Below, in pieces: positions 19,006-62,004 of a stretch of 64,000 nucleotides of DNA (the first letter of the stretch is position 1; the number at the start of each line of letters is the position of its first letter). Origin of the DNA: an uncultured Candidatus Saccharibacteria bacterium. GTDB lineage: Bacteria > Patescibacteriota > Andersenbacteria > UBA10190. The DNA lies in assembly GCA_964392095.1 (NCBI GenBank), contig CAYMOF010000001.1:12401-76400 (forward strand), written 5' to 3'. Below the pieces are notes generated by a model. That model searched no databases, was not told where the DNA came from, and worked only from the letters and a program-made list of their open reading frames with translations. The translations under genes were made by a program, and so were the position numbers.

Positions 19006-20289
19006 ATGTTTCGCTCCACAGACAAAAGCCTACATCCCAAAATAATCTCCGTTACCGGCACCAAAGGCAAGACTACCATTGTCCGTCTGCTGGACCATGT
19101 TCTCGCCCGACAATTTAACAACATTCTAAGGGTAGATACAGACGGCCACTATTTAAACGGAACCCAAAAATCAAACCCTCTGGACAGCTATCAACTTTTT
19201 GGCTTGTTACCAGGATCTTCTCCCGGCAGATTTTTATGGGACCTGCGCGATAAAAAAAATTCCCTGGCCATCCTTGAAGCAACATTCTCCTGTTCAGGGC
19301 ATGCCGGTCTTGGCTATCTTTCACATGACATTGGAATTTTCACCAATGTTTATGGCGACCACTTGGGACGCGACATAAAAAATGCCAAACAAATGGCGCG
19401 ACACAAAGCCAGGTTTATTTTTTCTCGCATAAAACCATCCGGCTTTGCCGTTTTTAATGCCGACGATAAACGCGTCTGTCGTTATCTGAACATGATACCA
19501 CCCTCTCTTAACATTAAGAAAATTCCTGTCGGCATTGATTTTAAGTATTTTTCTCCCAACCAACTCAAGCATCCCCATGAATTCGCCATAACTTGTAAAG
19601 AAAACAACGTAGGCCTGCTAAATAAACACAAGTTTAATCCTTTGTTCGACGCCTCCACTATTCCGTGGACTTTTAATGGTTGTTTTCTGCCCTCCATCTC
19701 TAATCTTATGTTTGTAACCGGTGCCCTAGGCGCTCATTACAACAAGCAAATACCTGCCGAGATTATTAATCGAATTTGCTCATACCAACCCAAAGAAGCT
19801 GGCGGACGATTAATAAGTATAAAAAACGAAGCCCGCAACATCACCGTCCTCCTCGACTTCGCCCACGAAGAAAAATCGCTTCTTGAAATTGCCAAACTCG
19901 CCCGCCAGCTATCTACCAACTCGACTATCAGCGTAATTCGAATAAACCCTGATCGCACCGACGCCTTGATTAAAAAAACCGGCCGCCGGATAGCCAACGC
20001 CTTTGACACTATAATCGTTTACGACAAAATCGATGGCATACACAGAAACGAATTAAAAGTTCCTCGCTGGAAACTTACTCGCCAACCAGGCGCCACTGCT
20101 TCACTGCTGCACTCCGCCATCAAAAAACATCAAAAACCACCTCACCAAACCTTCAAAATTATTGAAGAAAGAAAGGCCGTCGCAAAAGCTATCAGCATTG
20201 CTCAACCGGGAGACGTAATTATTTATATTGTCAACGATAATCATGGAGCCAGCTTAAACATCGCCAAAGAAGCCCTAAATCAATCATGA
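19006..20289 (+). CDS. Mur-ligase-family protein (CphA C-domain / MurT / PgsB-like amide ligase)
   Basis: P-loop ISVTGTKGKTT, GIFTNVYGDHLG (Mur ligase TN..DHLD motif) and a C-terminal Mur-ligase-type domain. Does not look like MurC-F proper. Confidence 0.65.
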   Translation: MFRSTDKSLHPKIISVTGTKGKTTIVRLLDHVLARQFNNILRVDTDGHYLNGTQKSNPLDSYQLFGLLPGSSPGRFLWDLRDKKNSLAILEATFSCSGHAGLGYLSHDIGIFTNVYGDHLGRDIKNAKQMARHKARFIFSRIKPSGFAVFNADDKRVCRYLNMIPPSLNIKKIPVGIDFKYFSPNQLKHPHEFAITCKENNVGLLNKHKFNPLFDASTIPWTFNGCFLPSISNLMFVTGALGAHYNKQIPAEIINRICSYQPKEAGGRLISIKNEARNITVLLDFAHEEKSLLEIAKLARQLSTNSTISVIRINPDRTDALIKKTGRRIANAFDTIIVYDKIDGIHRNELKVPRWKLTRQPGATASLLHSAIKKHQKPPHQTFKIIEERKAVAKAISIAQPGDVIIYIVNDNHGASLNIAKEALNQS

Positions 20290-40334: not shown

Positions 40335-40634
40335 GTGCAGATCATCAAAGAAAAATCCATCGTCGCTAACACAAGGTTGTCCAGAAACTCTCTTTTTGTA
40401 ACTACCAAAAATTTCAAGGGTTTTAAAACCGGTATAAACAAAGAAGAAGAATACAGTTGGTTTTACATTGTCTGTCTAAAAGGAGAAGAAGGAGAAAGCA
40501 TCACCCTTAACATCAATAATCCAAATAAGAAGAACGAGCCGCTGTCTCTAAAAAATGGACTAGCCCACTACTCCTTAGATGGTTGGCAATGGCATAAAAT
40601 CAACTCCGTCCCACTAACCAGTTATGGTTTCTAA
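40335..40634 (+). CDS. Small hypothetical protein. Possibly the detached N-terminal beta-sandwich domain of the downstream M14-like peptidase.
   Basis: 99 aa with GTG start. Overlaps the next ORF by 11 nt in a different frame. The composition suggests a beta-rich domain. Confidence 0.25.
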   Translation: MQIIKEKSIVANTRLSRNSLFVTTKNFKGFKTGINKEEEYSWFYIVCLKGEEGESITLNINNPNKKNEPLSLKNGLAHYSLDGWQWHKINSVPLTSYGF

Positions 40635-41562
40635 CACCATTTTCTATGACTACGAAAAAGCAACTAATTTCATAACCCGCTATGTTACTCAAAACAAAGA
40701 CTTCTGTTCACTCACTAGCATTGGCAAATCCCTAAAACAAAAGCCTCTCCATGTTATCAATTATTCTAAAACGAGCGACCCCAAAGGAAGAATTTTTATC
40801 ACCACCGGCTGTCATCCGGCCGAACTGGATTTAGCCATATCATTAGCTATCATGAAATTTCTAACCACGCCTTTGGGCCAGAAAATACTCGAAAATTACA
40901 ATATCGACATAATGCCAATGCAAAACCCTGGCGGCTTCCTTATGGAAAGCTGTTTAACCGCCAATGGCATTAATCTTTACTGGAATTTTAGACATACCGA
41001 TAAATTTAACTGCCCTGAAGCCTTCTATCTCCAGCAATACCTCAAAAAAATCCCGCCTCTTCTCTGCCTCGACTTCCACTTTTATGTAACCCAATTTCAC
41101 CGGCCCTCCATGCCTTACCTAAAACCTCGTCACGAATATTGGGGACTAAAAACCAAAAGAGTCGTTCATCACATAAACAAAACCCTAACCAAACTATCCA
41201 ACGGTTTCTATAAAACAGGTTCTCTTTCTTCATGGCCCGCCAGTCTGTCTTACCTAATCACCGCTGAATTTAATACCATTGCTTACACCAAATACCATTT
41301 CAACCTCAAAGAAGGCCTCAAAACTTCTCAAAACCGGGCCGAAGAAATTTTTATTGCCCTAACCAACCAGCTAATAAAGCGCAATCTATCTAATTCTAAC
41401 ACTCTCAAAAATCCTTATAGAGGGACCCAGTCAGACAGTTCAAATAAGGCCCCCATCAGAATAATTTATAAACTCGAGGCACTTTACAAACAACTTTATA
41501 TATACCTTAAATCTTACTCCAACAAATACACTTTTTACTTACAAAATTTTCTCAGAAACTGA
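40624..41562 (+). CDS. M14-family zinc carboxypeptidase-like protein
   Basis: SIGKSLKQKPLHVINY...GRIFITTGCHPAELD (HxxE zinc motif) and IDIMPMQNPGGF (NPDG-like) match the M14 layout. Confidence 0.4.
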   Translation: MVSNTIFYDYEKATNFITRYVTQNKDFCSLTSIGKSLKQKPLHVINYSKTSDPKGRIFITTGCHPAELDLAISLAIMKFLTTPLGQKILENYNIDIMPMQNPGGFLMESCLTANGINLYWNFRHTDKFNCPEAFYLQQYLKKIPPLLCLDFHFYVTQFHRPSMPYLKPRHEYWGLKTKRVVHHINKTLTKLSNGFYKTGSLSSWPASLSYLITAEFNTIAYTKYHFNLKEGLKTSQNRAEEIFIALTNQLIKRNLSNSNTLKNPYRGTQSDSSNKAPIRIIYKLEALYKQLYIYLKSYSNKYTFYLQNFLRN

Positions 41563-42642: not shown

Positions 42643-43719
42643 ATGACTAATGTTTTTATCGATATTGTTCTACCCAAAGAATTAAAATGTGATCAGGCTT
42701 TTCAAAACATTTACTTCGTCACCTCCACCCATACTCGAAAACGCTCTCCGGCAGATTGGCAAAAAAAATTTAAAAAGTACTGTCGTCGCGGCCACTTCAA
42801 TTCCGAACTATTCTCCACGAAATTACTCAAGGGATTAAAAATTTTTTCTTTTTACAACCTTTCTTTTTCCCTGCCCTTTTTAGTTGTCAAAGAAAACCCC
42901 TCTTCCGTTACCATCAACCGATACGACTCCCCTAATTCAATACTGGTTTATTTCCTCACCCGCCTGCTGTGCCCTAAAGCAAAGATTTATTTCTATTCTG
43001 AAATGTGGATTTACCCCCAAAATCTGCTCTATAAAATATCATGGCCTGTAATCAGCTACCTCGCCACTCACGCCGACAAGCACTACGTTATAGGCTCGCA
43101 ACAAAAAAAATTCCTTATCAAAAAAAACGTCAGCCCCACAAAAATTATAGTCACCCGCGACGTGCCCTACGCGCCGATTCTTAAGACCTCCAACCTAGTC
43201 GCTCCTCTCAAAGAAAAGTTGGATCACAAAAAGACAATTGAACTGCTTTATATAGGAAGAATCATCCCCTATAAAGGCCTCTTTTATCTCCTCAAGGAAT
43301 ACAAAAAACTAACCGAGCTTTCCCCCAACAAATTTCATCTATCAATAGTCGGCGGCGGTAAAAATCATAACGAGTCTCAATTTTCCGGCGCCGATCCCGA
43401 CTATGAACAAAAGTGTCGTCAATATGCCAGCTTAAATCTCGCCTCTTCCGCATACGATTTCTACGGCTATCAAGAAAAAGTTGCCCCTTATTACAAAAAA
43501 GCTGATTTGTTAATTACCCCCAACATAATTGTCCTCCAAAACATAGTTCCCGCTGAAGCCTGGGGAAGAATAGTCCCTGAAGCTCTAAAAAACCATGTTC
43601 CGGTCCTGGCCACCACTGCCATCCCCTCCGCTCACGATTACATTAAGAACGACATAAACGGTTGGATTGTTAAAAAAATTAATTTCCAACCATTTATCAA
43701 ACTCATTCAAGATGTCTAA
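42643..43719 (+). CDS. GT-B glycosyltransferase, GT4-like
   Basis: C-terminal IVPEALKNHVPVLATTAIPSAHDYIKNDINGWIV. Start set to the ATG at 42643, just after the upstream stop. Confidence 0.55.
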   Translation: MTNVFIDIVLPKELKCDQAFQNIYFVTSTHTRKRSPADWQKKFKKYCRRGHFNSELFSTKLLKGLKIFSFYNLSFSLPFLVVKENPSSVTINRYDSPNSILVYFLTRLLCPKAKIYFYSEMWIYPQNLLYKISWPVISYLATHADKHYVIGSQQKKFLIKKNVSPTKIIVTRDVPYAPILKTSNLVAPLKEKLDHKKTIELLYIGRIIPYKGLFYLLKEYKKLTELSPNKFHLSIVGGGKNHNESQFSGADPDYEQKCRQYASLNLASSAYDFYGYQEKVAPYYKKADLLITPNIIVLQNIVPAEAWGRIVPEALKNHVPVLATTAIPSAHDYIKNDINGWIVKKINFQPFIKLIQDV

Positions 43720-45082
43720 ACGTCAAGCAATTATTTTTATAATTCTAGTCTTCCTAGTCACTAGGGGCCTTCTTTTTCTCCTGGAAAAAGATCTGTTTTT
43801 GTATAAATTTCCCTATCAAGACGACGCGCCCGCCTATCTTAAAATTTCCCAAATACTCCTTGGTCAAGAAAGCTACGAAAGCTCCAGCTTAAGCCCCTTT
43901 GTACGCGTCCCCGGCTACCCTCTTTTTCTTTCGGCTATTCAAAAACCAGCCGGCTTAAACAACTTCAAGACAATTTTCTTCATCCAGCAATTTATCTCTC
44001 TGGTCATTATTTTCACTTTATTCTTTTACCTCTGTAAAAAAACAAGTATCAAGATGGCCTTAACCCTGGTTCTAATTCTCGCCCTCTTCTTTGACTTCAC
44101 CTTATATGGTTTCCTTATACGTTCAGAAATACTCTTCACTTTTCTAATATTCTTTGGTACTCTAACCCACTTAAACACCGTTAATCGGCGTCAATTAAAA
44201 TGGGCGGTTTTAACCGGCCTTCTCTTTGGGTTGGCTACCCTAACTCGTCCGGTTTCTTTTTTAGCCTTTATTCCCTTATCTCTGACCATCCTGGCCACCA
44301 AACAAAAAGGCTTAAACACTATTGTCTCCTCTCTAAAACTCATTTTTGCCTTCCTTATACCTTTTGTCTTAGTTTTAACACCCTGGCTAACTAGAAACTA
44401 CTCCTTAAGCGGCCGCTTCCTTCTCCAGCAAGATTTAAGCAACATTTATTATGCCACCCTGCCAGGAGGCCACTGGCAGTCAGTCCAAATTACCGACGTA
44501 ATCGACACTGCCGACAAAGACTACCTTGCTATCGACTCCGAAATGACCGCCTTAGCTGTAAAAAACATCAAAGAAAAACCTAACGTCTGGATAAAAAACA
44601 GTCTGCGTAGTTTTCTCTATCGCCTCTGGTCGATGGGCTTCACTGATACCTATCTGCGCTACTTTGAATATACTCCTGACACCGGCGGTTATCACAAATC
44701 ATCCATCAGTCCCCTGTCTAAACTAATCAGCTCTATCAATATTTTTTCAAATCGCTATTCAATAAATCCAATCCATCACCTATACCTTGTTATTAATAAT
44801 ATAATTGGCTTTTCTTTTATCTTAATGTCTCTTTTCTGCCTAATCGTATTTCCCTACTTTAAAAGAAACGCCATCGTGATTTTCACAATATTTCTATATT
44901 TCTGGAGTATCACCTCGATTTTTGCCTTCAGCGGCTCACGTTATATGATCCCTATGGTGCCCCTCCTTTTCCTCTTGACTCCAGACATACTCGCAGGTGC
45001 CCGCTCACTATTCAGTCCCCAAAAAGAGTCCCTGTCTTACCACTCTTTTATAAAAAGATCGCTCTTAAAACCCTTTTCCTGA
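43712..45082 (+). CDS. ArnT/PMT-family (GT39/GT83-like) lipid-carrier-dependent membrane glycosyltransferase
   Basis: FVRVPGYPLFLSAIQ matches the R-x-P-x-YP-x-FL family motif, with multi-TM topology. The ATG at 43712 overlaps the upstream stop (gATGtcTAA). Confidence 0.6.
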   Translation: MSKRQAIIFIILVFLVTRGLLFLLEKDLFLYKFPYQDDAPAYLKISQILLGQESYESSSLSPFVRVPGYPLFLSAIQKPAGLNNFKTIFFIQQFISLVIIFTLFFYLCKKTSIKMALTLVLILALFFDFTLYGFLIRSEILFTFLIFFGTLTHLNTVNRRQLKWAVLTGLLFGLATLTRPVSFLAFIPLSLTILATKQKGLNTIVSSLKLIFAFLIPFVLVLTPWLTRNYSLSGRFLLQQDLSNIYYATLPGGHWQSVQITDVIDTADKDYLAIDSEMTALAVKNIKEKPNVWIKNSLRSFLYRLWSMGFTDTYLRYFEYTPDTGGYHKSSISPLSKLISSINIFSNRYSINPIHHLYLVINNIIGFSFILMSLFCLIVFPYFKRNAIVIFTIFLYFWSITSIFAFSGSRYMIPMVPLLFLLTPDILAGARSLFSPQKESLSYHSFIKRSLLKPFS

Positions 45083-45821
45083 CCCTCGCGAACCTATAGC
45101 CCATACCCAGTTTAAATAAAATCCAGAGGGACTCAAATATTAGTTTTAATCTAAAATTAGATTTTCCGCGCGCCCGATTAACAAAAACTGTCGGCACTTC
45201 TACTATCTTGTTCCCCTTAATATGCCACTGCAGTAGTTCCTGACTCAACATAATGAAACCGTCCGCGTCTAATCTGTCCAAATCTAAAGCAACCAACTGC
45301 TCCCATCCGAATACCCTGTAGCCATTAGTGTAATCCCTTATCCCCACAGACAAAACAAGCCTGGCTAAACAATTTGCTAAAGCGCTAAACACCCTTCTCC
45401 CCTCCGGCCAGCCGACAATTTTACTTCCCCTTATATAACGTGAGCCCACCACTACTTCCCCCCCACTCAACGCCGCTAGCAGTTTCGGCAAATCCTTAGG
45501 ATCATGAGAAAAATCTGCGTCAGCAACGGCTATAACCCCCTTCTCATAGTTTTTCTTTAAATACTTATAACTTTCAACAATAGCCGCTCCTCTGCCCTGC
45601 TTCCTGTCGCACTCTAAAACCATAACCCCCTTATCATTCCCAAATTGTTTTTTAACTATTTGGGCCGTACCGTCCGGAGAATCACTATCAGCCACTATTA
45701 TTTTTATTTCCCTCTCTACTTCCCTAAAACCATTAATTAACGACACTATATTGCTAGCCTCGTTAAAAGTTGGAATTATTAAAAATAGGTTTTTCTCCGC
45801 CGCAACTTTTTCATTCATCAA
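45048..45821 (-). CDS. GT2 polyprenol-phosphate glycosyltransferase (ArnC/DPM1-like)
   Basis: LFLIIPTFNEASNI, IIVADSDSPDGT, KQGRGAAIVESY, VADADFSHDPKD. The 3' end overlaps the convergent ArnT-like gene by 35 nt. Confidence 0.8.
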   Translation of the reverse strand: MMNEKVAAEKNLFLIIPTFNEASNIVSLINGFREVEREIKIIVADSDSPDGTAQIVKKQFGNDKGVMVLECDRKQGRGAAIVESYKYLKKNYEKGVIAVADADFSHDPKDLPKLLAALSGGEVVVGSRYIRGSKIVGWPEGRRVFSALANCLARLVLSVGIRDYTNGYRVFGWEQLVALDLDRLDADGFIMLSQELLQWHIKGNKIVEVPTVFVNRARGKSNFRLKLIFESLWILFKLGMGYRFARVRKRVLRAIFL

Positions 45822-47046
45822 ACAAGCTCAAAAAATCATCAAAAACAGAAACCACATACGCCAAATCACTTTCCAACAACCCCTGATGAACTCCGATGTG
45901 GTAACCAGCCCCGCCGATATATTCTGCCACCGGAAAATCACCTCGCTTATACCCTAAAAACTCATAAGCCTTGTGCTGCGTCGGCAGGCTCCCAAAAAGA
46001 CGCTTCCACTCAATGCCCGCCTCGGTTAACATTTTTTCTATCTCTGGACCCCTAAACGGTGCCCTTTCTTCAACAACAAAAGGGAAACCCTGCGGCCCAA
46101 TCACTTCATAATCTTCCACTTTGGGCAAATCAATAAAACCCCGCTCTCTTTGCAAAGTCGCCAAATTTTCCAGCAAATAATCGTAGTTATACTTTCTCTT
46201 TTTTCTTATCTCTTCATACCTCAAGCACTGATCCACGCCCAGAGCGGCTTCCAACTCATTCATTTTACTGTTAAAACCCACTCTATGAAAATCGAAATCT
46301 AATTTCCCTGGTGGACGGCCATGAGACCGCAACGACATATATATATCCCTCATTTTCTCGTCATCCGTCGTTACCACCCCTCCCTCGCCAGTGCAAATAA
46401 GATGCGCGGCATATAAACTAAACGACGTTCCAATACCCCTACTACCTATTCTAGTCCCTTTATAAAAACTGCCGTGGGCCTGGCAACCATCCTCAAAAAC
46501 CAATAGGTCATGCTTCTTTGCTATCTCACGAATTTCATCCATAGCCGCTGGTTTACCCATTATATGAACCGGAAATATGGCTCGTGTGTTTTTAGTTATC
46601 GCTTCTTCAATTTTACCCGCATCAATATTGAACGTCTCTCGTTCCACATCAACAAATTTTGGAGAAAGCCCTGCTGCCAATACGGAATTAGCGGTAGCGC
46701 TAAAAGTCAAAGCTGGCAGTATTACCTCATCCCCTCTTTTTGCTCCAAAATCATACAGGCTCGACATCATTAAAGTACAAGCATCCGTACCGGAACTAAC
46801 CGCCACCGCGTACTTGGCGCTCACAACTTCGGCAAAAAGCTTCTCAAACCTGGGAACGTAAGGACCGGTGCTAACCCGGCTAGTTTCTAAACAATCCTTT
46901 AAAAAAGCCCACGCCCTTGGACCTATATCCACAGATCCGTAACCAACTTTGCGCCCACTAACAGCTCTGGGCATTTCCTTGCTTTCTTTAAGCCCAACAG
47001 CTGTTTCCTCCTTAAAATTACCCTTTATTTTCAAATCATCGCTCAT
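45811..47046 (-). CDS. DegT/DnrJ/EryC1-family PLP/PMP-dependent sugar-modifying enzyme with His in place of the Schiff-base Lys (ColD/E1-type 3-dehydratase signature)
   Basis: Family layout is clear (FEDGCQAHGSFYKGTRIGS...GTSFSLYAAHLICTGEGG). The position aligned to ArnB Lys188 (FSFHAIKNI) is His (codon CAT, checked on the DNA). Confidence 0.7.
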   Translation of the reverse strand: MSDDLKIKGNFKEETAVGLKESKEMPRAVSGRKVGYGSVDIGPRAWAFLKDCLETSRVSTGPYVPRFEKLFAEVVSAKYAVAVSSGTDACTLMMSSLYDFGAKRGDEVILPALTFSATANSVLAAGLSPKFVDVERETFNIDAGKIEEAITKNTRAIFPVHIMGKPAAMDEIREIAKKHDLLVFEDGCQAHGSFYKGTRIGSRGIGTSFSLYAAHLICTGEGGVVTTDDEKMRDIYMSLRSHGRPPGKLDFDFHRVGFNSKMNELEAALGVDQCLRYEEIRKKRKYNYDYLLENLATLQRERGFIDLPKVEDYEVIGPQGFPFVVEERAPFRGPEIEKMLTEAGIEWKRLFGSLPTQHKAYEFLGYKRGDFPVAEYIGGAGYHIGVHQGLLESDLAYVVSVFDDFLSLFDE

Positions 47047-47207: not shown

Positions 47208-48731
47208 TCAAAACACACTCTTGACAATCAGCGCATCTTTTATGCTTTTAAAAACCCGCTTTCCTACTTCAACATCTTTTTTATTCCACACCCCAGCTTT
47301 TTTGACCATAAACAAATAAATAATCACAAAACCAACCAATGACAACAAGGACCTCATTAAATCATCTCCTTTTAATACAATCAGACCTGTTGTTCCCGCA
47401 ACTCCAACTGCAAAAGCATGTCGCCTAATACCCGACACGTCCAAGCCTACCCCATAAATCCTCCTTGTTAGAAAGTAAAAACACACTGATTGCATAATCA
47501 AGCTCAAAGCTGTAGAAAACGCCACCCCGTTAATCCCCCAAATACCCACCAAACTTATTGACAGAAAAATATTTATCAATGCAACAATTAAGTTAACAAC
47601 AAAAATCATCACTGTTCTTCCATACGCAACTAGAACATTGCTCGACAAACTCAATAGTGAGCTCACAACAATTCCTGATACCACGATAACCAACGCGGTC
47701 CTTCCTCCTATAAAACTCTCTCCAAAAACAGCCCTGATAAAAAAACGACTCCACAGGATCAAAACTACCGCCACAGGAAAAGTTAAACCGAATATCCATC
47801 TGGTTACATCACTAAATATTTCTTTCACGGCTTTGTTTTTTTTCAGAGAAGCCTGCTCTGAAACCTGGGCAATAAATAACTGCGATATAACCCGATAAAA
47901 AAAAGACACCAACAACGCCAAAGAATATGAAGCCGAATATAAACCTAAATTAGTATTGTCTAAATACCTAGCAATAATCAAATTATCACTCCAGTTCAAA
48001 ACCATCGCGAAAAAACCCGACAACAACAATGGTAGAGAAAACAAAAGCCACTCTCTGATGGGCCACGAACCTTTTTTATACCCAACACCCAAGTCTATTT
48101 TAGCAATCAAAAACAAATCAACAACCAAAGCTATAAAAACAGACAAGAATAAAATAAAGGCCATGAAGACCATATCCAACCCCTTCCAAAAACCAATCAG
48201 TACACCGATAATTAACACTATTTTTTCAACAATATGGTATGAAAAATTTCTATAGAAATACCGTTTCTCCGCTAAAAAAATATTTCTAACAATGTTCGTT
48301 AAAACAGCCAATGGTATCGCCAGAACAATAAAAACAAGTAAATCATTAAATCGGGTTGGCTGACTTAAAAAAAGTCTTAGCGCCTCCCGATTCCACCACA
48401 GCAATGACGACATTAATACGGATACCAATAGAGGTACCCCACAGACAAAGAAAAGATAGTTGCCTCCCAAAGACCCTCCCCTCGCTTTGTACCACGGCAA
48501 ATATCTGGAAATACTGTTAACCAGCCCAAAACCAGCGATAAGGACAAAAAACCTAAGCAATGTGTCCAATAATGAATAGGCGCCAAACTCACTAACTGTA
48601 TAAGCTCGGGCTAACAGAACCCTAAAAAGCCAAACCAATAGCGTACTGACCACCAAAAACGAAAAGGTAGTACCTGCCCCACGAGCCACGTTTTCCTGGG
48701 CCGAAATGTCTCTGGAGACCGACATCATCAA
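47208..48731 (-). CDS. Wzx-like polysaccharide flippase (MOP superfamily)
   Basis: 507 aa, about 14 TM, with an N-terminal GAGTTFSFLVVSTLLVWLFRVLLARAY pattern. Confidence 0.65.
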   Translation of the reverse strand: MMMSVSRDISAQENVARGAGTTFSFLVVSTLLVWLFRVLLARAYTVSEFGAYSLLDTLLRFFVLIAGFGLVNSISRYLPWYKARGGSLGGNYLFFVCGVPLLVSVLMSSLLWWNREALRLFLSQPTRFNDLLVFIVLAIPLAVLTNIVRNIFLAEKRYFYRNFSYHIVEKIVLIIGVLIGFWKGLDMVFMAFILFLSVFIALVVDLFLIAKIDLGVGYKKGSWPIREWLLFSLPLLLSGFFAMVLNWSDNLIIARYLDNTNLGLYSASYSLALLVSFFYRVISQLFIAQVSEQASLKKNKAVKEIFSDVTRWIFGLTFPVAVVLILWSRFFIRAVFGESFIGGRTALVIVVSGIVVSSLLSLSSNVLVAYGRTVMIFVVNLIVALINIFLSISLVGIWGINGVAFSTALSLIMQSVCFYFLTRRIYGVGLDVSGIRRHAFAVGVAGTTGLIVLKGDDLMRSLLSLVGFVIIYLFMVKKAGVWNKKDVEVGKRVFKSIKDALIVKSVF

Positions 48732-51613: not shown

Positions 51614-52432
51614 ATGAAATACTACGACCCCAAAAACAAAAGATTATACTTCACCGGCCCGGCGGCTACCTGCTGTTACTGGGACAAACAATGGAAAGAA
51701 GACAATGACATTGTAAAGCTCCTCAAAACCGGCGGCGGCGACAATCTAGTCAGATCAATCACTCCCAAGTTTATCCAGCCCTCCCCTCAAGCCAAAGTAA
51801 TTGACGCCGGCTGCGGCAAAGGACAACACGTTGTCTCTTTAAAAAATCTGGGCTACTCGTCTTATGGGGTTGACTACGCCCCTAAAACCATCTCTCTCAT
51901 AAAAAAAATCAGGCCTGACCTGAAAGTAAGTTGTGCCGACATTACCGACCTCCCTTTTCCTAATGCCTACTTCGACGGTTACTGGTCGCTGGGAGTAATT
52001 GAACATTTCTACTCCGGCTTCGAGCCAGCGGCTAAAGAGATGGCCAGAGTAGTAAAGCCAAACGGCTACCTCTTTCTTGTTTTTCCCCACATGTCCTCCT
52101 TAAGAAAAACAAAATCGGCTTTATCTTTTTATCACACCTTCGACCCTCAAATTCACGACGCTGCCCATTTTTATCAGTTCGCGCTCCACGACAAAGACGT
52201 TATCAAAACCATGAGCCAATACGGCTTTCGCCTGATTTCCAAGAAGAAAAACAACGGACTTAAAGGACTAAAAGATGAATCGGCCTTCCTAAAGCCGCTA
52301 CTTCAACAACTATACGATCACCCTTCCCCGCCTATAAAAGCCACTAAAGTAATACTTTCAAAATTACTAACCCCGCTCACCAGCCACACTGTCGTTCTGG
52401 TTATGAAGAAGCAGGATAATAATTACGCCTAA
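51614..52432 (+). CDS. Class I SAM-dependent methyltransferase
   Basis: KVIDAGCGKGQH (motif I), FDGYWSLGVIEH, NGYLFLVFPH. Confidence 0.75.
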   Translation: MKYYDPKNKRLYFTGPAATCCYWDKQWKEDNDIVKLLKTGGGDNLVRSITPKFIQPSPQAKVIDAGCGKGQHVVSLKNLGYSSYGVDYAPKTISLIKKIRPDLKVSCADITDLPFPNAYFDGYWSLGVIEHFYSGFEPAAKEMARVVKPNGYLFLVFPHMSSLRKTKSALSFYHTFDPQIHDAAHFYQFALHDKDVIKTMSQYGFRLISKKKNNGLKGLKDESAFLKPLLQQLYDHPSPPIKATKVILSKLLTPLTSHTVVLVMKKQDNNYA

Positions 52433-53144
52433 CGTAATCATACAACTTTATATCCAAATCATTTTTCTTCCTTATTGTTTCCAGCTGTCCTTCGGTTAAC
52501 CCTCCCGTCCTAGTACGCGGTCGGTTAGCGTTATATCTTTTCTTTTCGCTATACTGTATCTCCTCGTCCTTAAAACCAAGTTTTTCTTTAACTTCCCGCA
52601 AAAACAAATCATATTTCTCCATTAGTCCCACCACCGCGAAATTATCCAGGTTTTTCTTAGCTTGTTCCAAATCACACTTATAAGGGTAAGACAGCCACTT
52701 AGTCATGTGGTTTGACTGCCGGCATAAAACCCCTCCGCTGTGCATATAATTATCCTCCTCTTCATTAAACCATTGATTAAACGGCATCTTCTCTTTTACT
52801 GCCTCGCTCACTTGATTTCTAGTCATTTTCCTGGCTTTCATAGGCGCGTCAAATAAGTACTTATAATACTCTGACAAAACCCGATCCACCGGCTCCCTTA
52901 ACAACACCACGTATTTACCGCCAGGCACGATTTCATCCTGCGCTTCCGGATTATAGGCCTGGTGAAAAGAATACACGCTGTAAGGCCTCTTGATAACACC
53001 GTCCAGCTCTTGATGATAGCTTCGATAATTATACACTTTCATTCCTCTTCGCCTGGCATACCTAACCAACAAACCATAAAAAGTGCTGCTTCCCACCCGG
53101 ACAAGCCTCACAAAGATAATCCTAGTCTGATTTTCCCTTCCCAT
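52401..53144 (-). CDS. PAPS-dependent sulfotransferase family protein
   Basis: RVGSSTF (5'-phosphosulfate-binding loop analogue of KTGTT) and LLREPVDRVLSEY (3'-phosphate-binding RDP..R..S motif). The 3' end overlaps the convergent MTase by 32 nt. Confidence 0.6.
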   Translation of the reverse strand: MGRENQTRIIFVRLVRVGSSTFYGLLVRYARRRGMKVYNYRSYHQELDGVIKRPYSVYSFHQAYNPEAQDEIVPGGKYVVLLREPVDRVLSEYYKYLFDAPMKARKMTRNQVSEAVKEKMPFNQWFNEEEDNYMHSGGVLCRQSNHMTKWLSYPYKCDLEQAKKNLDNFAVVGLMEKYDLFLREVKEKLGFKDEEIQYSEKKRYNANRPRTRTGGLTEGQLETIRKKNDLDIKLYDYVRRNYYPASS

Positions 53145-57235: not shown

Positions 57236-57912
57236 ACCATCTTCACACTATACCTCCACCTGGACTGCATATAAAACTCTAATCGATCAATATCCTCATC
57301 ATAAAATTCAACCTTTCTGCCCAACTCATCCCCGATTTTAATAAAAAATTCTTTATCATAAAACATATGGCTCGGGGTAACCTTTCCCCCGACCTTTTTT
57401 CGGCTCTCCAGCCTATCTAAATATCTTTCCCTCTTCTTTTTCTTACCCGCATCATTCACATCACCGATAATAATTCGTCCGTCCTTTTTGGCCACCCTAA
57501 CCATCTCTTTAACCGCCTGGATCGCGTACTTACAAGACGGAAAATACTGCCAAACGCTCCAAGCGCAAACCACGTCAAAACGATTGTCATCAAAAGGAAT
57601 CTTATTAGCTTCGGCTACTCTAAAATCACCCTCTATGTTTTTCCTGATAATATCAATTGAATCTTTAGCGTAATCAACCCCCGCCAAACTTCCCCACTTT
57701 TCAACCTCCATAAGAATCGCCCCCGCCCCGCAACCTACCTCCAAAACATCATCCCGAGAGCCAATCTCACACAGATCCAAAAAATAGTCGGCCAAATCCT
57801 TCCACTGTTTTCTATTTAGGGTTTCAAAACCATCCATCACGTGAAGAATATCAACATCGCCGCCAGGCCGATATTTTTTGTCCCATATTTTTAACCACTG
57901 TTTATCCCTCAT
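57232..57912 (-). CDS. Class I SAM-dependent methyltransferase
   Basis: VLEVGCGAGAIL (motif I), FDVVCAWSVWQYF, DGRIIIGDV. Confidence 0.7.
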   Translation of the reverse strand: MRDKQWLKIWDKKYRPGGDVDILHVMDGFETLNRKQWKDLADYFLDLCEIGSRDDVLEVGCGAGAILMEVEKWGSLAGVDYAKDSIDIIRKNIEGDFRVAEANKIPFDDNRFDVVCAWSVWQYFPSCKYAIQAVKEMVRVAKKDGRIIIGDVNDAGKKKKRERYLDRLESRKKVGGKVTPSHMFYDKEFFIKIGDELGRKVEFYDEDIDRLEFYMQSRWRYSVKMV

Positions 57913-59714
57913 ATGTCTATCCTGATCCTGCCCTGATCAACAGAAGAATATCCGGCAGAAAAGACGGTTCCCTCTTTCACATAATCCTTAGCCCCTTTTA
58001 CCGCCTGTTCTCTTTCCATTTCCGGTATTTTTTTTGATACTTCCTCACTGTCATCAGCCCACCCCTCCTCGCTAAGCCTGTAAGCCTCGACCCTTTTTAC
58101 ATTATCGCTATTAATCACGCCATTTTTAAACCCAAAGAAAACTATCCACTTGTAATGATCATCATATCCGGCTACTCCCACTGATCCAAGAGTCTTGTAA
58201 TCTACCGTTTCATTAATCCAATAAACACCTCCGTAAAACCTCTCGCTTACCGCCTCGTAGTATCCGGGCAACTCCCAGCCGGCCACTTCCGCCAGTAAAC
58301 CATAAACAGAAGATGTCGCACTAATAAATTTACCAGCTTTTTCTTGCCACCTGCCAGCACCTTCCCAGCCTTCTGAAGTTTTAAACATCATTGGCACCCG
58401 CAAGCGGTCCTCATAAAACTGATAACTATATCTGGTATAAGGCGGTACCGACCGGCCATGATCAGCCAATAACACAATATGACTCTGGGGAAAATACGAC
58501 TCCCCTTCCAACCAGGTCAACAGAGTTTCCAAAAACAAATCCAGCTGTTTCAAAGTCTCCCAATACCCGCTAAAAGCCGCGTTGTTTTTATCTTTTGTGC
58601 CTCTAATACTCGCGTAGGGCGGGTGGGCCCCAGGCAAATGCAAATGAACATAAGTCGGCTCCCGCCTAGCATTAGCTATAAATTGCGTCGCTGTTTTTAG
58701 GGACGGATATTTTCTTATCCGACCACTGCAAACATTTATGTACCTGTGAAAACCACGCGCGTGCCCATATTGAGGCCGCCACTTGGAAAAAAAAGTCAAG
58801 CCTAAGCTTTTGTAACCGTCACCCGAGGCCAATTCAGCCACCGTTTTTATACGAGGAGAAAGTGTCATTAATTTGTCGCTATAATGCCAAGTGTCATAGT
58901 CGTAAATCATATGCCTGGTTAAACCCAGGCCGGTCATCAAACAAGCCGAAGCGCTGCCGGTCACGCTAGCCGAACACACCGCCTTTTTAAAAACAATTGA
59001 ATTTTCGGCCATCTTATTAAACCCCTTCAGCTCCGTCCGGCCCCTTAGGTCACTAGCCGTCACCGCGTCAACAGATAATACCAACAACAGGGGGGGCTTT
59101 TGTCCTTTTTTTTTAAAACAAGCCCTAGTTAAAAAAACTTTTTTATCATTTTTTTTGCCGCTCTTATCTTTAACCTCGACGTCATCAACATAAACAGTTA
59201 AATTTCCCTCTTTACTTACTAATTGATCGGGAATCTCAACCAACAACTCCACCCACCAGTCTTCTTTATCAACATTTCTCGCAAAATCTCTGTCAAAACC
59301 GCACTTAAAACTATATTCTTCCCCCTCTTTGTTGCCGTAACCACTTCCAAAAATCATCCTGCCCTTCACCCGCAAAGACCCAATCTCTCCTACCGGCTTT
59401 CCCGTAAAAACCTCAAAAGACACTTCTCGACCCGCTTTTACCCCCTTCCTCTCATACACTTTCACTGGTCCGCTCTTGCCCCACTTTCTACAAAGCCTGC
59501 CTTCATAACTTTGATAATCACGTGTTTTTTCTTTATGAATCAAAACCACGCTCCTCTCTTTTTCAATCCCAACAACTCGACCGCGCTTGTATCTGCCAAC
59601 CTTCACGGACACCAGATACTTCACTTTCTCCCAGGCTTTCTTAATCTCTTCCCGCCAATTAAGCCTTTCTTCAAATACTAAAATCTGTTGCTTTTTATCG
59701 CTCACACTCCACAA
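57909..59714 (-). CDS. Alkaline-phosphatase-superfamily sulfatase-like protein with ~190-aa N-terminal soluble extension. Lacks the C/S-x-P-x-R FGly motif.
   Basis: LLLVLSVDAVTASDL (metal-binding Asp region), HLHLPGAHPPY, IVLLADHG (sulfatase/LtaS GDHG motif). The nucleophile region is TGSASACLMTG in place of CxPSRxxxLTG. No TM helix. The sense strand carries A9 (top T9 at 59106-59114). Confidence 0.6.
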   Translation of the reverse strand: MWSVSDKKQQILVFEERLNWREEIKKAWEKVKYLVSVKVGRYKRGRVVGIEKERSVVLIHKEKTRDYQSYEGRLCRKWGKSGPVKVYERKGVKAGREVSFEVFTGKPVGEIGSLRVKGRMIFGSGYGNKEGEEYSFKCGFDRDFARNVDKEDWWVELLVEIPDQLVSKEGNLTVYVDDVEVKDKSGKKNDKKVFLTRACFKKKGQKPPLLLVLSVDAVTASDLRGRTELKGFNKMAENSIVFKKAVCSASVTGSASACLMTGLGLTRHMIYDYDTWHYSDKLMTLSPRIKTVAELASGDGYKSLGLTFFSKWRPQYGHARGFHRYINVCSGRIRKYPSLKTATQFIANARREPTYVHLHLPGAHPPYASIRGTKDKNNAAFSGYWETLKQLDLFLETLLTWLEGESYFPQSHIVLLADHGRSVPPYTRYSYQFYEDRLRVPMMFKTSEGWEGAGRWQEKAGKFISATSSVYGLLAEVAGWELPGYYEAVSERFYGGVYWINETVDYKTLGSVGVAGYDDHYKWIVFFGFKNGVINSDNVKRVEAYRLSEEGWADDSEEVSKKIPEMEREQAVKGAKDYVKEGTVFSAGYSSVDQGRIRIDI

Positions 59715-59796: not shown

Positions 59797-62004
59797 TTAA
59801 TAAAACACTCTCTTTCCAGCCCCTACCCTTTTTCTAACCATCTCCTGAATCTCCCTCCGCATAAACCAGTCCGGCAGATCCCTGCCTTCCTGAAAAGCCT
59901 TGCGGGCCTGGGTACCGCTAATCATCTCCACTGTGCCCGCTTCACTCAAACTCACATAAGTTTTCCTTTTAGGATTAAAACCAACCGCCTCAAAGAATAC
60001 CGGCTCAACACCAATATCCCCAACCTTTTCAAATATTTCCTTTGTTTCTCTGGGCTTATAAAAATCTCCTACTCCAGTATGGTCGCGCCCGACAATAAAA
60101 TGGCTACACCCCATATTTTTCCTGCATAAGGCAGTAAATACTGCCTCCCTGGGGCCGGCGTATCTTGAATAAGTGGAAAAGCTTCCTAAAACAGCCCTGC
60201 CTTTAGGATAAGCTCCGTTTTTAATAGCCAGTTCATAGCTTCTCATTATCGGCCCCGTTAACCAGTCACCGCTTTTCTTAGGGCCTATCACCGGGCTCAA
60301 AAATAACCCGCTTGCTCCCGTCCTTTTAAGGGCCGTCAACTGCAAATACTCGTGCGCTCTATGCACCACATTTCTTGTATGAAAACCCACCACTTTACGC
60401 CACCCCTTATGGGTAAATATTTGCCGCGTCTGATGCGGATCCAGCTCATATTTCCGCCAAACAGAATCCCCTTTTTCTATCAATTCCACCTCTCCCGCTA
60501 TAAACATCTCCCCCGATTCCATAAACCTTCTCACTCCCGGATGATCCCGAGACGTTGTCTTAAACCACAGCCTGGCCGCTTCTTCCCGATCACATTCATA
60601 AACTTCGCTAACTTTCAATAAACTATGCTTTTTGCCCTTGCCATCTTTTAGAACAACTCTCATGCCCGGTTTAATTTTTTCAGCTCTTCTTCTATCTACC
60701 TGCAATATAACCGGCATAGTCCAAACGCACCCGTTCAGCAATTTCATATCATATAAAACACTAAACAGCTCGTCTTTAGTCATAAATCCAGAAACCGGTG
60801 AAAATGTGCCTAGAGCGATCTGCTCACAATCCATCAGGTCGGTATCCTCCACTGTCAAGCTCATCAAATCATCTAAATCTTCCTTTGAACCGCTATACAA
60901 ATTTTTCAAAAGTTTTCCCCCGTGAGGCTCCACCAGCATAGACACCGAAGTGGACACTATGAAGCTTTTCGTTTCTCCGACCTCCCTTTCATATTGCTTC
61001 ATTAATCTTATTATCATTTCCGCGCAAGCTACCGGATATCTGCCCACCGCCGTCTCAGCCGCTAACACCAAACCGTCAGCCCCGTCCGCTAAAGTGTTGT
61101 AAATATCATTAACTTCCGCCCTGGTAGGAACAGGCGCTTCCACCATAGATTCCAACAGATTAGTGGCCACGTAAACGCGCCTGTCCAGATTATGACACTC
61201 AGCAATTATTTTTTTCTGCAAACGAGGAAGCAGCTCTATTGAAGCCTCCCGCGACAAATCGCCTCGATCAATCAAGATATCGTTCGCGCTTGCGGCAATC
61301 TGCTTCAAATTTAACAACCCTTCTTCACATTCAATTTTCGCCGTAACCTTAAACCCTTCCCCAACAATTTCTCTCACCTCTTGTATATCTTCAACGCGAT
61401 GAGCAAAAGATAACGCCACGTTGCTTATCCCCAAACCTTTAACCTGCTTCAAAGCCTCTCTGTCTTTATCTGTTAAAGGAGATAACCTTATTTTTCTATC
61501 AACAGAAAGAGCTTTGTTCTGCTCAATTATCCCTTCTTCCAAAACCTTTAAAATCACTTTTTTCTCGTCTTTTACAATAACCCGCAACAAAACTTTTCTA
61601 TAATCAACGGTCACCAGATCCCCAACCCGCAAGCTTCTGCCTACTTCTTCTGGGTAAAAACTGAAATTAGGCCCCGCGGCTATCGCGTTACCCCCACCTT
61701 CTTTTAGATAAACCGTTAACTCCTCCTCCTCTTCCACCCAAATTTTTCTTCCTCCCTGATATCCCGTCCTGGGCTGGGCTCCTTCCGTATCAATACATAT
61801 CGGAACCGCGCTGTGTCTTCTAACCAGCCCCACCAAATTACCTAAATCATAAACATCCGTATGAGACATGTTGATTCTGAACAAATTAACCCCCAGATCC
61901 GTTAAGCTCCTTATTACCTCCGCGTTCATTGACGCCGGTCCCAAGGTGCACCAAACTTCTTTTCCCTTATTAAATTTGGATATTTCTGACATAAACTTCG
62001 TCAA
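59797..62004 (-). CDS. Fusion protein: pyruvate-kinase-like N-terminal domain (A+B domains, catalytic residues conserved) joined to a complete ATP sulfurylase (sulfate adenylyltransferase, Sat type)
   Basis: N-terminal part: TLGPAS..NLFRINMSHTD, IDTEGAQPRTG, KIECEEG, DRGDLS, ATNLLESMVEAPVPTRAEVNDIYNTLADGADGLVLAAETAVGRYP (PK signatures). C-terminal part: PUA-like segment LVEPHGGKLL..., then GFHTRNVVHRAHEYL (QTRNP.HRAHE motif) and IVGRDHTGVGDFY (GRDHAG motif). Confidence 0.75.
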   Translation of the reverse strand: MTKFMSEISKFNKGKEVWCTLGPASMNAEVIRSLTDLGVNLFRINMSHTDVYDLGNLVGLVRRHSAVPICIDTEGAQPRTGYQGGRKIWVEEEEELTVYLKEGGGNAIAAGPNFSFYPEEVGRSLRVGDLVTVDYRKVLLRVIVKDEKKVILKVLEEGIIEQNKALSVDRKIRLSPLTDKDREALKQVKGLGISNVALSFAHRVEDIQEVREIVGEGFKVTAKIECEEGLLNLKQIAASANDILIDRGDLSREASIELLPRLQKKIIAECHNLDRRVYVATNLLESMVEAPVPTRAEVNDIYNTLADGADGLVLAAETAVGRYPVACAEMIIRLMKQYEREVGETKSFIVSTSVSMLVEPHGGKLLKNLYSGSKEDLDDLMSLTVEDTDLMDCEQIALGTFSPVSGFMTKDELFSVLYDMKLLNGCVWTMPVILQVDRRRAEKIKPGMRVVLKDGKGKKHSLLKVSEVYECDREEAARLWFKTTSRDHPGVRRFMESGEMFIAGEVELIEKGDSVWRKYELDPHQTRQIFTHKGWRKVVGFHTRNVVHRAHEYLQLTALKRTGASGLFLSPVIGPKKSGDWLTGPIMRSYELAIKNGAYPKGRAVLGSFSTYSRYAGPREAVFTALCRKNMGCSHFIVGRDHTGVGDFYKPRETKEIFEKVGDIGVEPVFFEAVGFNPKRKTYVSLSEAGTVEMISGTQARKAFQEGRDLPDWFMRREIQEMVRKRVGAGKRVFY

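Follow-up and report, generated by a model that had tools for sequence, protein, structure and literature searches.

A DegT-family protein whose Schiff-base lysine is replaced by histidine, a predicted sugar 3-dehydratase encoded beside lipid-carrier-type glycosyltransferase genes in an Andersenbacteria-like CPR bacterium

Described dehydratases and lipid-carrier glycosylation systems

What chiefly sets the sugar 3-dehydratases E1, ColD, and SpnQ apart from sugar aminotransferases, according to PMC8987622, is a histidine that replaces the catalytic lysine. ColD (WbdK) of Escherichia coli O55 is a GDP-4-keto-6-deoxy-D-mannose 3-dehydratase (PDB 2gms) that belongs to an O-antigen cassette, while E1 (DdhC/RfbH) is a CDP-6-deoxy-L-threo-D-glycero-4-hexulose 3-dehydrase (PDB 3bcx) that depends on a reductase and has, in common with SpnQ, a four-cysteine motif near the cofactor for a [2Fe-2S] cluster. 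GDP-perosamine synthase (Per; PDB 3bn1/3dr4) is a true aminotransferase and reads Asn185-Lys186 at the catalytic position. Classically, dideoxyhexoses are attached by Leloir glycosyltransferases in the cytoplasm and do not come from polyprenyl-phosphate donors. To our knowledge, all established dideoxyhexose pathways use Leloir transferases, and we are aware of no organism in which a lipid-phosphate route for dideoxy sugars has been described.

Delivery of a modified sugar on a lipid carrier is the logic of the Arn (aminoarabinose) pathway, in which a DegT enzyme (ArnB) acts on an NDP-4-keto sugar, a GT2 enzyme (ArnC) loads polyprenyl phosphate, and a GT-C enzyme (ArnT) works on the outside. 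The arrangement of a small GT2 with a GT-C enzyme recurs in Dol-P-Man synthase with PMT, GtrB/GtrC, CsbB/YfhO, and PpgS/Rv3779. We know of no three-component lipid-carrier glycosylation system that is coupled to a His-type 3-dehydratase. The envelopes of CPR bacteria are almost unstudied, and this host group is expected to lack lipid A, unlike the bacteria that use the Arn pathway.

The whole stretch of DNA analyzed here (the window) is 64 kb long and belongs to a contig of 83.7 kb. The following features of the window are the subject of this analysis.

45811..47046, minus strand: DegT/DnrJ/EryC1-family fold-type I enzyme, 411 aa (Pfam, alignments, AlphaFold2, Foldseek, phylogeny)
46402..46404, minus strand: codon CAT of His215, in the column of the Schiff-base lysine (sequence reading)
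45048..45821, minus strand: small GT2, ~255 aa, polyprenyl/dolichyl-phosphate glycosyltransferase-like, with a DAD motif (Pfam Glycos_transf_2, 8e-23)
43667..45082, plus strand: GT-C-type membrane glycosyltransferase, 471 aa (Pfam PMT_2, 32.7 bits against a cut-off of 26.1)
47208..48731, minus strand: MOP-family (Wzx/MurJ-like) flippase (Pfam Polysacc_synt, 5e-19; MurJ, 5e-13)

The DegT-family protein shares with ColD the DegT fold, the histidine, a small residue preceding it, and the lack of an Fe-S motif; both fall in the same clade of His-type sequences, and genes near relatives of the protein suggest a GDP-sugar context in common as well. It differs from ColD in the gene setting: gmd and colC do not adjoin it within the window, and it is paired with a polyprenyl-phosphate-type GT2 and a GT-C gene, unlike ColD in its O-antigen cassette. 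The E1 motif SFYPAH fits the SxYxAH of the window protein, whereas E1 and SpnQ are set apart from it by their cysteine insert, and the window gene is accompanied by neither an E3-type reductase nor CDP-glucose genes. With the Arn pathway the module shares the three-step logic outlined above, but ArnA, ArnD, and ArnE/F do not adjoin it and the ArnB lysine is replaced by histidine.

The catalytic histidine and placement of the DegT-family protein

The full-length open reading frame matches Pfam DegT_DnrJ_EryC1 over residues 48 to 401 (E=5e-91); the true start of the protein may be Met25. Its catalytic motif is FSLYAAH215LICTGEGG, and the minus-strand DNA around this residue, from att gga acg through tta tat gcc gcg CAT ctt att to gag gga ggg, translates as IGTSFSLYAAHLICTGEGG. 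A HMMER alignment sets His215 against Lys186 of GDP-perosamine synthase (FSFFGNKIITTGEGG), and in a MAFFT alignment of 167 sequences His215, ColD His188, E1 His220, Per Lys186, and the ArnB lysine share one column. The preliminary description had claimed a histidine, encoded by CAT, where ArnB has its Schiff-base lysine, and had quoted the E. coli ArnB lysine segment, which is indeed FSFHAIKNITCAEGG; the DNA reading and both alignments bear this out.

The histidine is conserved in every one of the 120 best homologues (47 to 63% identity), together with 41 further invariant positions. In a 166-sequence alignment that joined sampled close homologues to the top 50%-identity cluster representatives, the catalytic position is occupied by His in 126 cases, by Lys in 38, and by Cys and Gln in 1 each. 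The catalytic residue was taken from the MAFFT column; a regular-expression motif scan overlooked about one-third of the 50%-cluster representatives. The preceding residue differs between the two types as well: among the 126 His-type sequences, 105 have Ala there and 117 have one of Ala and Ser, whereas 22 of the 39 Lys-type sequences have Asn. The window protein has Ala214 and thus matches the His-type signature. It keeps the cofactor-binding positions Asp186, Ser210, and Ser85/Gly86/Thr87 (SSGT) and the aromatic residue Phe115. A second histidine, His191 (in AHG), was considered as a clade-specific catalytic residue, since all 120 close homologues have it. It was rejected because 18 of the 39 Lys-type sequences share it, while 57 of the 126 His-type sequences do not.

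The extreme strand mutational bias of this genome might invite the reading that the histidine reflects a sequencing error or that the gene is decaying or inactive. We regard this as extremely improbable. An error in particular, which had been named earlier as a way in which the assignment could fail, is dismissed because two base changes separate CAT from AAA or AAG and because all 120 homologues have His; moreover, the frame is intact, the structural model is of high confidence, and the other 41 positions are invariant as well.

The AlphaFold2 model, built with the 120-sequence alignment as input, has a pLDDT of 91.3, with residues 1 to 32 at low confidence. Its top Foldseek matches (TM 0.80 to 0.93) are GDP-perosamine synthase (TM 0.93), E1, ArnB, and ColD. 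Sequence comparison likewise puts Per first (E=1e-55), at 35% identity against 33% for E1 and 30% for ColD, which weighs against a ColD-like function. The best PDB match other than Per, 7b0m, proved to be a Lys enzyme.

Family placement was assessed with a neighbor-joining tree of 167 sequences from which the catalytic column had been removed (ArnB as sole outgroup, 200 bootstraps, capped distance). A single His clade that holds ColD, E1, and the window protein was recovered in 173 of 200 bootstraps (86%), the subclade of the window protein in 200 of 200, and a clade of ColD and E1 that excludes it in 191 of 200. Common descent with ColD and E1, as opposed to an independent change from Lys to His, is therefore supported moderately, since the tree is a neighbor-joining tree with one outgroup. 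The same topology places the protein in a large sister group of ColD and E1 and inside neither orthogroup. Among NCBIfam models the best-scoring one is RfbH (218 against a cut-off of 423), and the equivalog models of ArnB (NF008658; 155.4 against 631), PseC, DesI, and WecE all remain far below their cut-offs. No curated NCBIfam model and no solved structure in the PDB covers the sister clade, and it holds no characterized member, which counts against the functional assignment.

It is most likely, judging from these comparisons, that the protein is a 3-dehydratase of the PMP-dependent class of ColD and E1, which would remove a hydroxyl group rather than add an amine; with the His substitution, a 3-deoxy sugar takes the place of an amino sugar as the predicted product. 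The earlier suggestion of a sugar 3-dehydratase rather than an aminotransferase is favored by the His clade, by the Ala/Ser preceding the histidine, and by genes for a GDP-sugar 4,6-dehydratase and for Fcl/ColC-like enzymes near relatives. Its further characterization as "ColD/E1-type" survives as a statement of class, while the E1 half does not: the cysteine-rich [2Fe-2S] insert of E1, RDCYCAPGCDNTC, has no counterpart in the alignment, where the window protein reads LRSHGRPPGKLDFDFHRVGFN, the RfbH score is below its cut-off, and the clade of the protein is sister to that of the two enzymes. As the Fe-S cysteine insert is missing, we infer a PMP/glutamate mechanism of the ColD type, and not of the E1/SpnQ type, as the best guess. 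Against a ColD-like reading counts the loop beyond the GEGG motif, which is short, as in Per: ColD has an insert of ~25 residues past its HG motif that is missing here, and the GDP-contacting arginines of ColD sit inside that insert.

The short loop is one of several observations that would fit an aminotransferase working without its lysine, in which His215 would be the base for a 1,3-prototropic shift and the product would be a 4-amino-4,6-dideoxy (perosamine-like) sugar or a 4-amino-pentose, made in an analogue of the Arn pathway. The nearest solved structures are aminotransferases, with Per leading by both sequence and fold, and the order of an aminotransferase-like enzyme, a polyprenyl-phosphate GT2, and a GT-C resembles ArnB/ArnC/ArnT. 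ColD itself runs a glutamate half-transamination, and SpnQ transaminates when it is given PLP and glutamate (PMC8987622). However, the tree built without the catalytic column groups the protein with ColD and E1 and not with the Lys enzymes, the signature is Ala/Ser-His and not Asn-Lys, the aminotransferase models fall well short of their cut-offs, and neither ArnA nor ArnD accompanies the gene. The host, a CPR bacterium related to Ca. Andersenbacteria, also belongs to a group expected to lack lipid A. From the mechanism, a 4-keto sugar with a free 3-hydroxyl on a His/PMP enzyme is expected to undergo elimination over transamination (PMC8987622). We consider an aminotransferase improbable and proceed with the 3-dehydratase.

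The GT2, GT-C, and flippase genes

The likely ATG of the GT2 gene at 45818 overlaps the DegT stop codon (45813-45811), giving a gene overlap of 8 to 11 bp, and the GT2 is predicted to be translationally coupled to the DegT gene. Among NCBIfam models, AglJ and PpgS match it best, though neither reaches its equivalog cut-off, and the ArnC model scores 32.7 against a cut-off of 529. The best PDB match is the Pyrococcus Dol-P-Man synthase 5mlz (99.9 bits, E=1.4e-27), against 33 bits for ArnC. Together with the DxD motif, these closest characterized relatives suggest a protein like a lipid-phosphate sugar synthase. The specificity for the donor is not readable from the sequence, and both a deoxy-sugar donor and a polyprenyl-phosphate acceptor are putative.

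The GT-C gene is convergent with the GT2 gene, and the two share 35 bp at the 3' end of the latter. The match to PMT_2 (GT39-GT83-like) spans residues 98 to 237, and the sequence YQDDAPAY after the first hydrophobic segment supplies the acidic residues of the first external loop. A phmmer comparison with ArnT and a search of all PDB chains gave no match, and the GT-C assignment is weak because the protein has neither a structure nor a PDB relative. It is presumed to use a polyprenyl-phosphate-linked sugar at the outer face of the membrane. The neighbors had previously been described as Arn-like; this stands for the architecture and fails for the kinship, as the GT2 is closer to Dol-P-Man synthase than to ArnC and the GT-C has no detectable similarity to ArnT. 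The flippase gene lies upstream of the DegT gene on the same strand after a gap of 161 bp and is a possible part of the module; the adjacency is absent in the related loci L001, L005, and L006.

Conservation of the neighborhood was examined around close relatives of the DegT-family protein (56 to 63% identity). The GT2 gene directly follows the His-type DegT gene in seven of seven readable contexts, while the other neighbors vary; orthologues of the window GT2 (252 to 305 bits) lie immediately downstream in L001, L005, L006, L059, L139, and L140. GT-C genes are found near the pair in most of the seven contexts. In L139 and L059 a convergent ORF is 59% identical to the C terminus of the window GT-C and the gene arrangement is the same, L001 and L005 have PMT_2 or GT87 genes adjoining the pair, and L006 has a GT87-TPR gene. 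A metagenome scan added one close relative (L059), and its remaining matches belong to the wider clade. A literature search on CPR bacteria with a DegT-His/GT2/GT-C module found no paper linking the two.

The window encodes more than 15 GT4, GT2, and GT9 enzymes and a second pair of a GT2 and a YfhO-type GT-C to which no sugar-modifying enzyme is attached.

The earlier proposal that a deoxy sugar is installed via a lipid-phosphate carrier is backed by the conserved synteny of the DegT and GT2 genes, from which such a delivery may be inferred. It may instead be that a true 3-dehydratase feeds ordinary cytoplasmic glycosyltransferases and that the GT2 and GT-C form an independent polyprenyl-phosphate-mannose or -hexose system next door. 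The numerous GT4, GT2, and GT9 enzymes could take an NDP-dideoxy sugar directly, the GT2 is nearest to a plain Dol-P-Man synthase, and the second GT2/GT-C pair has no sugar-modifying enzyme attached. The use of Leloir transferases in the established dideoxyhexose pathways known to us also speaks for independence and against the lipid-carrier route. However, the adjacency of the DegT and GT2 genes outlasts the change of neighborhood in all seven contexts, the two genes overlap in the window, and the pairs in L005 and L006 have no large glycan cluster around them. We judge independence of the two systems to be unlikely, though deserving of weight, and favor the coupling of the 3-dehydratase to the GT2.

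Sugar-nucleotide context and proposed route

The main weakness of the 3-dehydratase assignment is that the 64-kb window holds no gene for a 4,6-dehydratase, a 4-reductase/epimerase, or a sugar nucleotidyltransferase, and the same pathway genes are missing from the 10- to 14-kb contigs of L005 and L006. Gmd/ColC or CDP-glucose genes, which the preliminary description had proposed to look for, are likewise not present in the window; a true Gmd (431.8 against an equivalog cut-off of 415) is encoded 9 kb from the closest homologue, on a contig that also has a second SDR. This bona fide Gmd is the sole nucleotide-sugar enzyme seen near a member of the close subclade. Across 62 loci of the wider clade, we found an HddA-like kinase in 57, an HddC-like guanylyltransferase in 54, an SDR in 54, and an Fcl/ColC-like SDR in 46, which places this clade in GDP-heptose-type cassettes that include a B12 radical-SAM enzyme. 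A GDP-sugar substrate is suggested by the Gmd near the closest homologue, by the GDP-heptose and Fcl/ColC-like genes of the distant ones, and by Per as the nearest structure. The nearness of the GT2 to Dol-P-Man synthase, which uses GDP-mannose, may be a further hint of a GDP sugar.

The cassettes of the wider clade raise the question of whether the same PMP/His chemistry is applied to another substrate, such as GDP-6-deoxy-4-keto-heptose or a UDP-4-keto-pentose, or to a related elimination at another position. A GDP-heptose C3-dehydratase does exist in Campylobacter jejuni, and that enzyme is a ColD orthologue (PMC10440746). The subclade of the window protein also departs from the wider clade both in gene context and in having Gln189 where the wider clade has Glu. 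Nevertheless, no heptose-pathway genes were found beside members of the close subclade, and the Gmd is all that stands near one of them. We hold another substrate to be distinctly improbable and return to a GDP-hexose as the likeliest one.

In the proposed cycle, the enzyme would hold PMP noncovalently, since there is no lysine for an internal aldimine. PMP would condense with the carbonyl at C4 of an NDP-4-keto-6-deoxy-sugar to give a ketimine, the likeliest substrate being a GDP-sugar, for instance GDP-4-keto-6-deoxy-mannose. His215 would then take the C4' proton and the 3-hydroxyl would leave. Hydrolysis of the resulting enamine would yield an NDP-4-keto-3,6-dideoxy-sugar and ammonia, and L-glutamate would turn PLP back into PMP; neither an Fe-S cluster nor a partner reductase would take part. 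Reduction at C4 would fall to an enzyme encoded elsewhere. The coupled GT2 would then move the deoxy sugar onto polyprenyl phosphate, the lipid-linked sugar would be flipped across the membrane, and the adjacent GT-C would join it to a glycan or a protein on the surface of the CPR bacterium. Taken as a whole, a ColD-like PMP-dependent 3-dehydratase with GT2/GT-C delivery of the deoxy sugar on a lipid carrier is the explanation toward which we lean, if by a modest degree.

The pairing of a His-type DegT enzyme with a lipid-carrier glycosyltransferase suggests an undescribed route by which a deoxy sugar reaches the cell surface. More tentatively, Andersenbacteria-like CPR bacteria may use a member of a sister family of ColD and E1 to produce a GDP-derived hexose of the 3,6-dideoxy (or 4-keto-3,6-dideoxy) kind, load it onto polyprenyl phosphate with the GT2, and attach it on the outside with the GT-C. 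If the coupling is real, it would widen the range of sugars carried on polyprenyl monophosphate carriers, and from the conservation of the three genes one would predict that CPR bacteria have a deoxy-sugar donor linked to lipid and a specific modification of their surface. The proteins themselves carry the automatic labels "DegT family aminotransferase" or "glutamine-scyllo-inositol transaminase," and reannotation would concern a very large clade, to which most of the 150 highest-ranking 50%-identity cluster representatives belong.

The catalytic histidine and the clade that shares it

The enzyme under study (DegT-His) and its catalytic codon are positioned as follows.

45811-47046, minus strand: DegT-family ORF, 411 aa (Pfam DegT_DnrJ_EryC1, E=5e-91)
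46404-46402, minus strand: CAT codon of His215, read from the DNA

The DNA around this codon (...tat gcc gcg CAT ctt att tgc act ggc gag gga ggg) translates to FSLYAAHLICTGEGG. HMMER pairs His215 with Lys186 of the aminotransferase Per (GDP-perosamine synthase), and a 167-sequence MAFFT alignment places it in one column with ColD His188, E1 His220, Per Lys186, and the ArnB lysine (ColD [2gms] and E1 [3bcx] were taken from PDB alignments and ArnB from E. coli K-12). The preliminary description, which reported a histidine encoded by CAT at the lysine position, was correct in every detail. A sequencing error at this codon, or a pseudogene, is scarcely credible, as it is contradicted by the presence of His in 120/120 nearest homologs (47-63% identity) from a 5.8-billion-protein collection, alongside 41 further invariant positions, among them Asp186 (pyridine binding) and Ser210 (phosphate binding). 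Across 166 aligned sequences (the top-ranking representatives of 50%-identity clusters, with close homologs sampled in addition), the catalytic column contained 126 His, 38 Lys, 1 Cys, and 1 Gln. The preceding residue covaried with it: of 126 His-type proteins, 117 have Ala or Ser there, and of 39 Lys-type proteins, 22 have Asn; in DegT-His it is Ala214. Cys or Gln occurred in cluster representatives P0258 and P0263, both inside the His clade.

By sequence, Per (35% identity, E=1e-55), E1 (33%, E=6e-48), and ColD (30%, E=2e-45) appear roughly equidistant from DegT-His, with ArnB more distant (29%, E=5e-37). An AlphaFold2 model using the 120-sequence alignment as input (pLDDT 91.3) most resembled Per (TM 0.93), then E1, ArnB, and ColD, a ranking of predicted folds that alone cannot separate these types. 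The top non-Per PDB match, 7b0m, proved to be a Lys enzyme. Residues 1 to 32 of the ORF (46951-47046, minus strand) had pLDDT values of <50 and have no counterpart in most homologs; Met25 (ATG at 46974-46972, minus strand) is preceded by AAGGA and may be the true start.

The proximity of Per in both sequence and fold would suit a lysine-less aminotransferase within a true Arn analogue, but this is made rather improbable by the Ala214-His signature and by a neighbor-joining tree (catalytic column removed, ArnB as outgroup, 200 bootstraps). There, all His proteins, the Cys and Gln variants, ColD, and E1 formed one clade (173/200), which we regard as moderate support for this sequence-based grouping. 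ColD and E1 formed a small clade without DegT-His (191/200), which instead grouped tightly with six relatives (200/200); their subclade belongs to a large uncharacterized sister group. The proposal of a 3-dehydratase over an aminotransferase is thereby strengthened.

What chiefly distinguishes the 3-dehydratases (E1, ColD, and SpnQ) from the aminotransferases is a His in place of the Lys; a [2Fe-2S] motif of four Cys is a further requirement of E1 and SpnQ and is missing from ColD (PMC8987622). The Cys-rich insert of E1 is absent from DegT-His in the alignment. DegT-His is therefore like ColD in both respects, and we infer a ColD-type mechanism. NCBIfam holds no model for this group, the top model being RfbH (E1) at 218 bits against a cutoff of 423, so that of the ColD/E1-type assignment made previously the ColD-type half stands and the E1-type half does not. 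DegT-His represents a known catalytic substitution inside an uncharacterized sister family.

Neighboring glycosyltransferases and partner genes

The following genes adjoin DegT-His.

45048-45821, minus strand: small GT2; nearest match among solved structures, Pyrococcus dolichol-phosphate-mannose synthase (99.9 bits, E=1e-27)
43667-45082, plus strand: GT-C (PMT_2), convergent with GT2 and overlapping its 3' end
Upstream of DegT-His: MOP flippase

The stop codon of DegT-His overlaps the GT2 start. GT2 scored 33 bits against ArnC (32.7 for the ArnC equivalog model, cutoff 529), and neither ArnT nor any PDB chain showed detectable similarity to GT-C. The neighbors, previously read as ArnC- and ArnT-like, are thus predicted to be DPMS/PMT-like, not Arn proteins. 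To our knowledge, lipid A, the target of Arn, is not expected in a Patescibacteria/CPR organism. A second lipid-carrier pair lies elsewhere in the window, where a paralog of the DegT-linked GT2 (135 bits; 13187-13915, plus strand) and a YfhO-like GT-C (13884-16193, plus strand) overlap, without an attached sugar-modifying enzyme.

DegT-His is immediately followed by a GT2 ortholog (252-305 bits) in 7/7 readable contexts of the close subclade (56-63% identity; the window, L001, L005, L006, L059, L139, and L140). GT-C genes (PMT_2 or GT87) are near the pair wherever sequence suffices, and the convergent arrangement recurs in L139 and L059, possibly one organism. GT2 and GT-C could be functionally independent of the dehydratase, but the invariant adjacency of DegT-His and GT2 makes this unlikely. 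We know of no earlier description of conserved coupling between DegT-His and lipid-carrier glycosylation in CPR bacteria.

A search for Gmd/ColC or CDP-glucose pathway genes, as previously suggested, revealed no local partners: the 64-kb window contains no SDR dehydratase/reductase or sugar nucleotidyltransferase, and the contigs of two relatives (L005 and L006) contain no dehydratase/reductase genes. The closest homolog's contig encodes a bona fide GDP-mannose 4,6-dehydratase (TIGR01472, 431.8 against a cutoff of 415) 9 kb from the homolog's own gene, with a second SDR also 9 kb away. The wider clade (45-50% identity; L002-L004, L008-L058, and L060-L138) is mostly Omnitrophota, with Desulfobacterota, Chloroflexota, methanogens, and other archaea. 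Its cassette, which is highly conserved, combines DegT-His with a Fcl/ColC-like SDR, a second SDR, a B12-binding radical-SAM enzyme, an HddA-like kinase, and an HddC-like guanylyltransferase, each partner occurring in 46-57 of the 62 loci whose upstream sequence extends for at least 6 kb; GmhA/GmhB often accompany it, as does a second, more distant DegT-family paralog. This is the gene set expected of a GDP-sugar 3-deoxygenation route, and it has the appearance of a pathway not yet described, leading to a GDP-linked heptose that is 3,6-dideoxygenated and possibly C-methylated. C. jejuni offers a parallel in its GDP-3,6-dideoxyheptose pathway, which however employs a true ColD orthologue (PMC10440746). 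The HddA-like, HddC-like, and GmhA/GmhB genes could indicate the same chemistry on another substrate class, but given the GDP-mannose 4,6-dehydratase near the closest homolog, we consider this improbable, slightly more so than the aminotransferase alternative.

On balance we favor, by a modest degree of confidence, a PMP-dependent 3-dehydratase of ColD mechanism whose substrate would be an NDP-4-keto-6-deoxy sugar, probably GDP-linked. The enzyme would remove the 3-OH, the enamine would be hydrolyzed, and PMP would be regenerated from glutamate; an enzyme encoded elsewhere would reduce the product, which in the CPR subclade would pass first to the Dol-P-Man-synthase-like GT2 and from there to GT-C transferases. 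Of this picture, the data establish the fold, the Lys-to-His change, the clade membership, the lack of the Fe-S motif, and the gene order, whereas substrate, chemistry, and connection to the lipid carrier are inferred. The main weaknesses are the local absence of partner genes, the lack of a characterized sister-clade member, and the moderate tree support.

The surrounding surface-glycan region

The remainder of the window is a very large surface-glycan region containing GT4, GT2, and GT9 enzymes, methyltransferases, LicD, a sulfotransferase, MurJ, and a Mur ligase. Named homologs of MurJ (51-57% identity) all belong to Candidatus Andersenbacteria (Patescibacteria/CPR). Two further gene sets were observed, the first a possible glycan-sulfation kit that includes an unusual fusion.

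52401-53144, minus strand: Sulfotransfer_2 protein
57909-59714, minus strand: sulfatase/phosphodiesterase-like membrane protein
59797-62004, minus strand: pyruvate-kinase barrel, PUA_2, and ATP sulfurylase fusion
40624-41562, plus strand: M14 carboxypeptidase-like protein
17508-18350, plus strand: RimK-type ATP-grasp ligase
19006-20289, plus strand: Mur-ligase-like protein

The last three, lying within the glycan cluster, hint that a surface polymer is decorated with peptides or amino acids.

Throughout positions 1-64000 the plus strand has a GC skew of about -0.3, whatever the gene orientation. Measured on the coding strand, the skew averages -0.29 for 32 plus-strand genes versus +0.37 for 18 minus-strand genes, and -0.53 versus +0.45 at third codon positions. 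Asymmetry of this strength is unusual in a bacterium, and it leaves a visible imprint on the proteome, Gly, Glu, and Val being about twice as common in minus-strand proteins.
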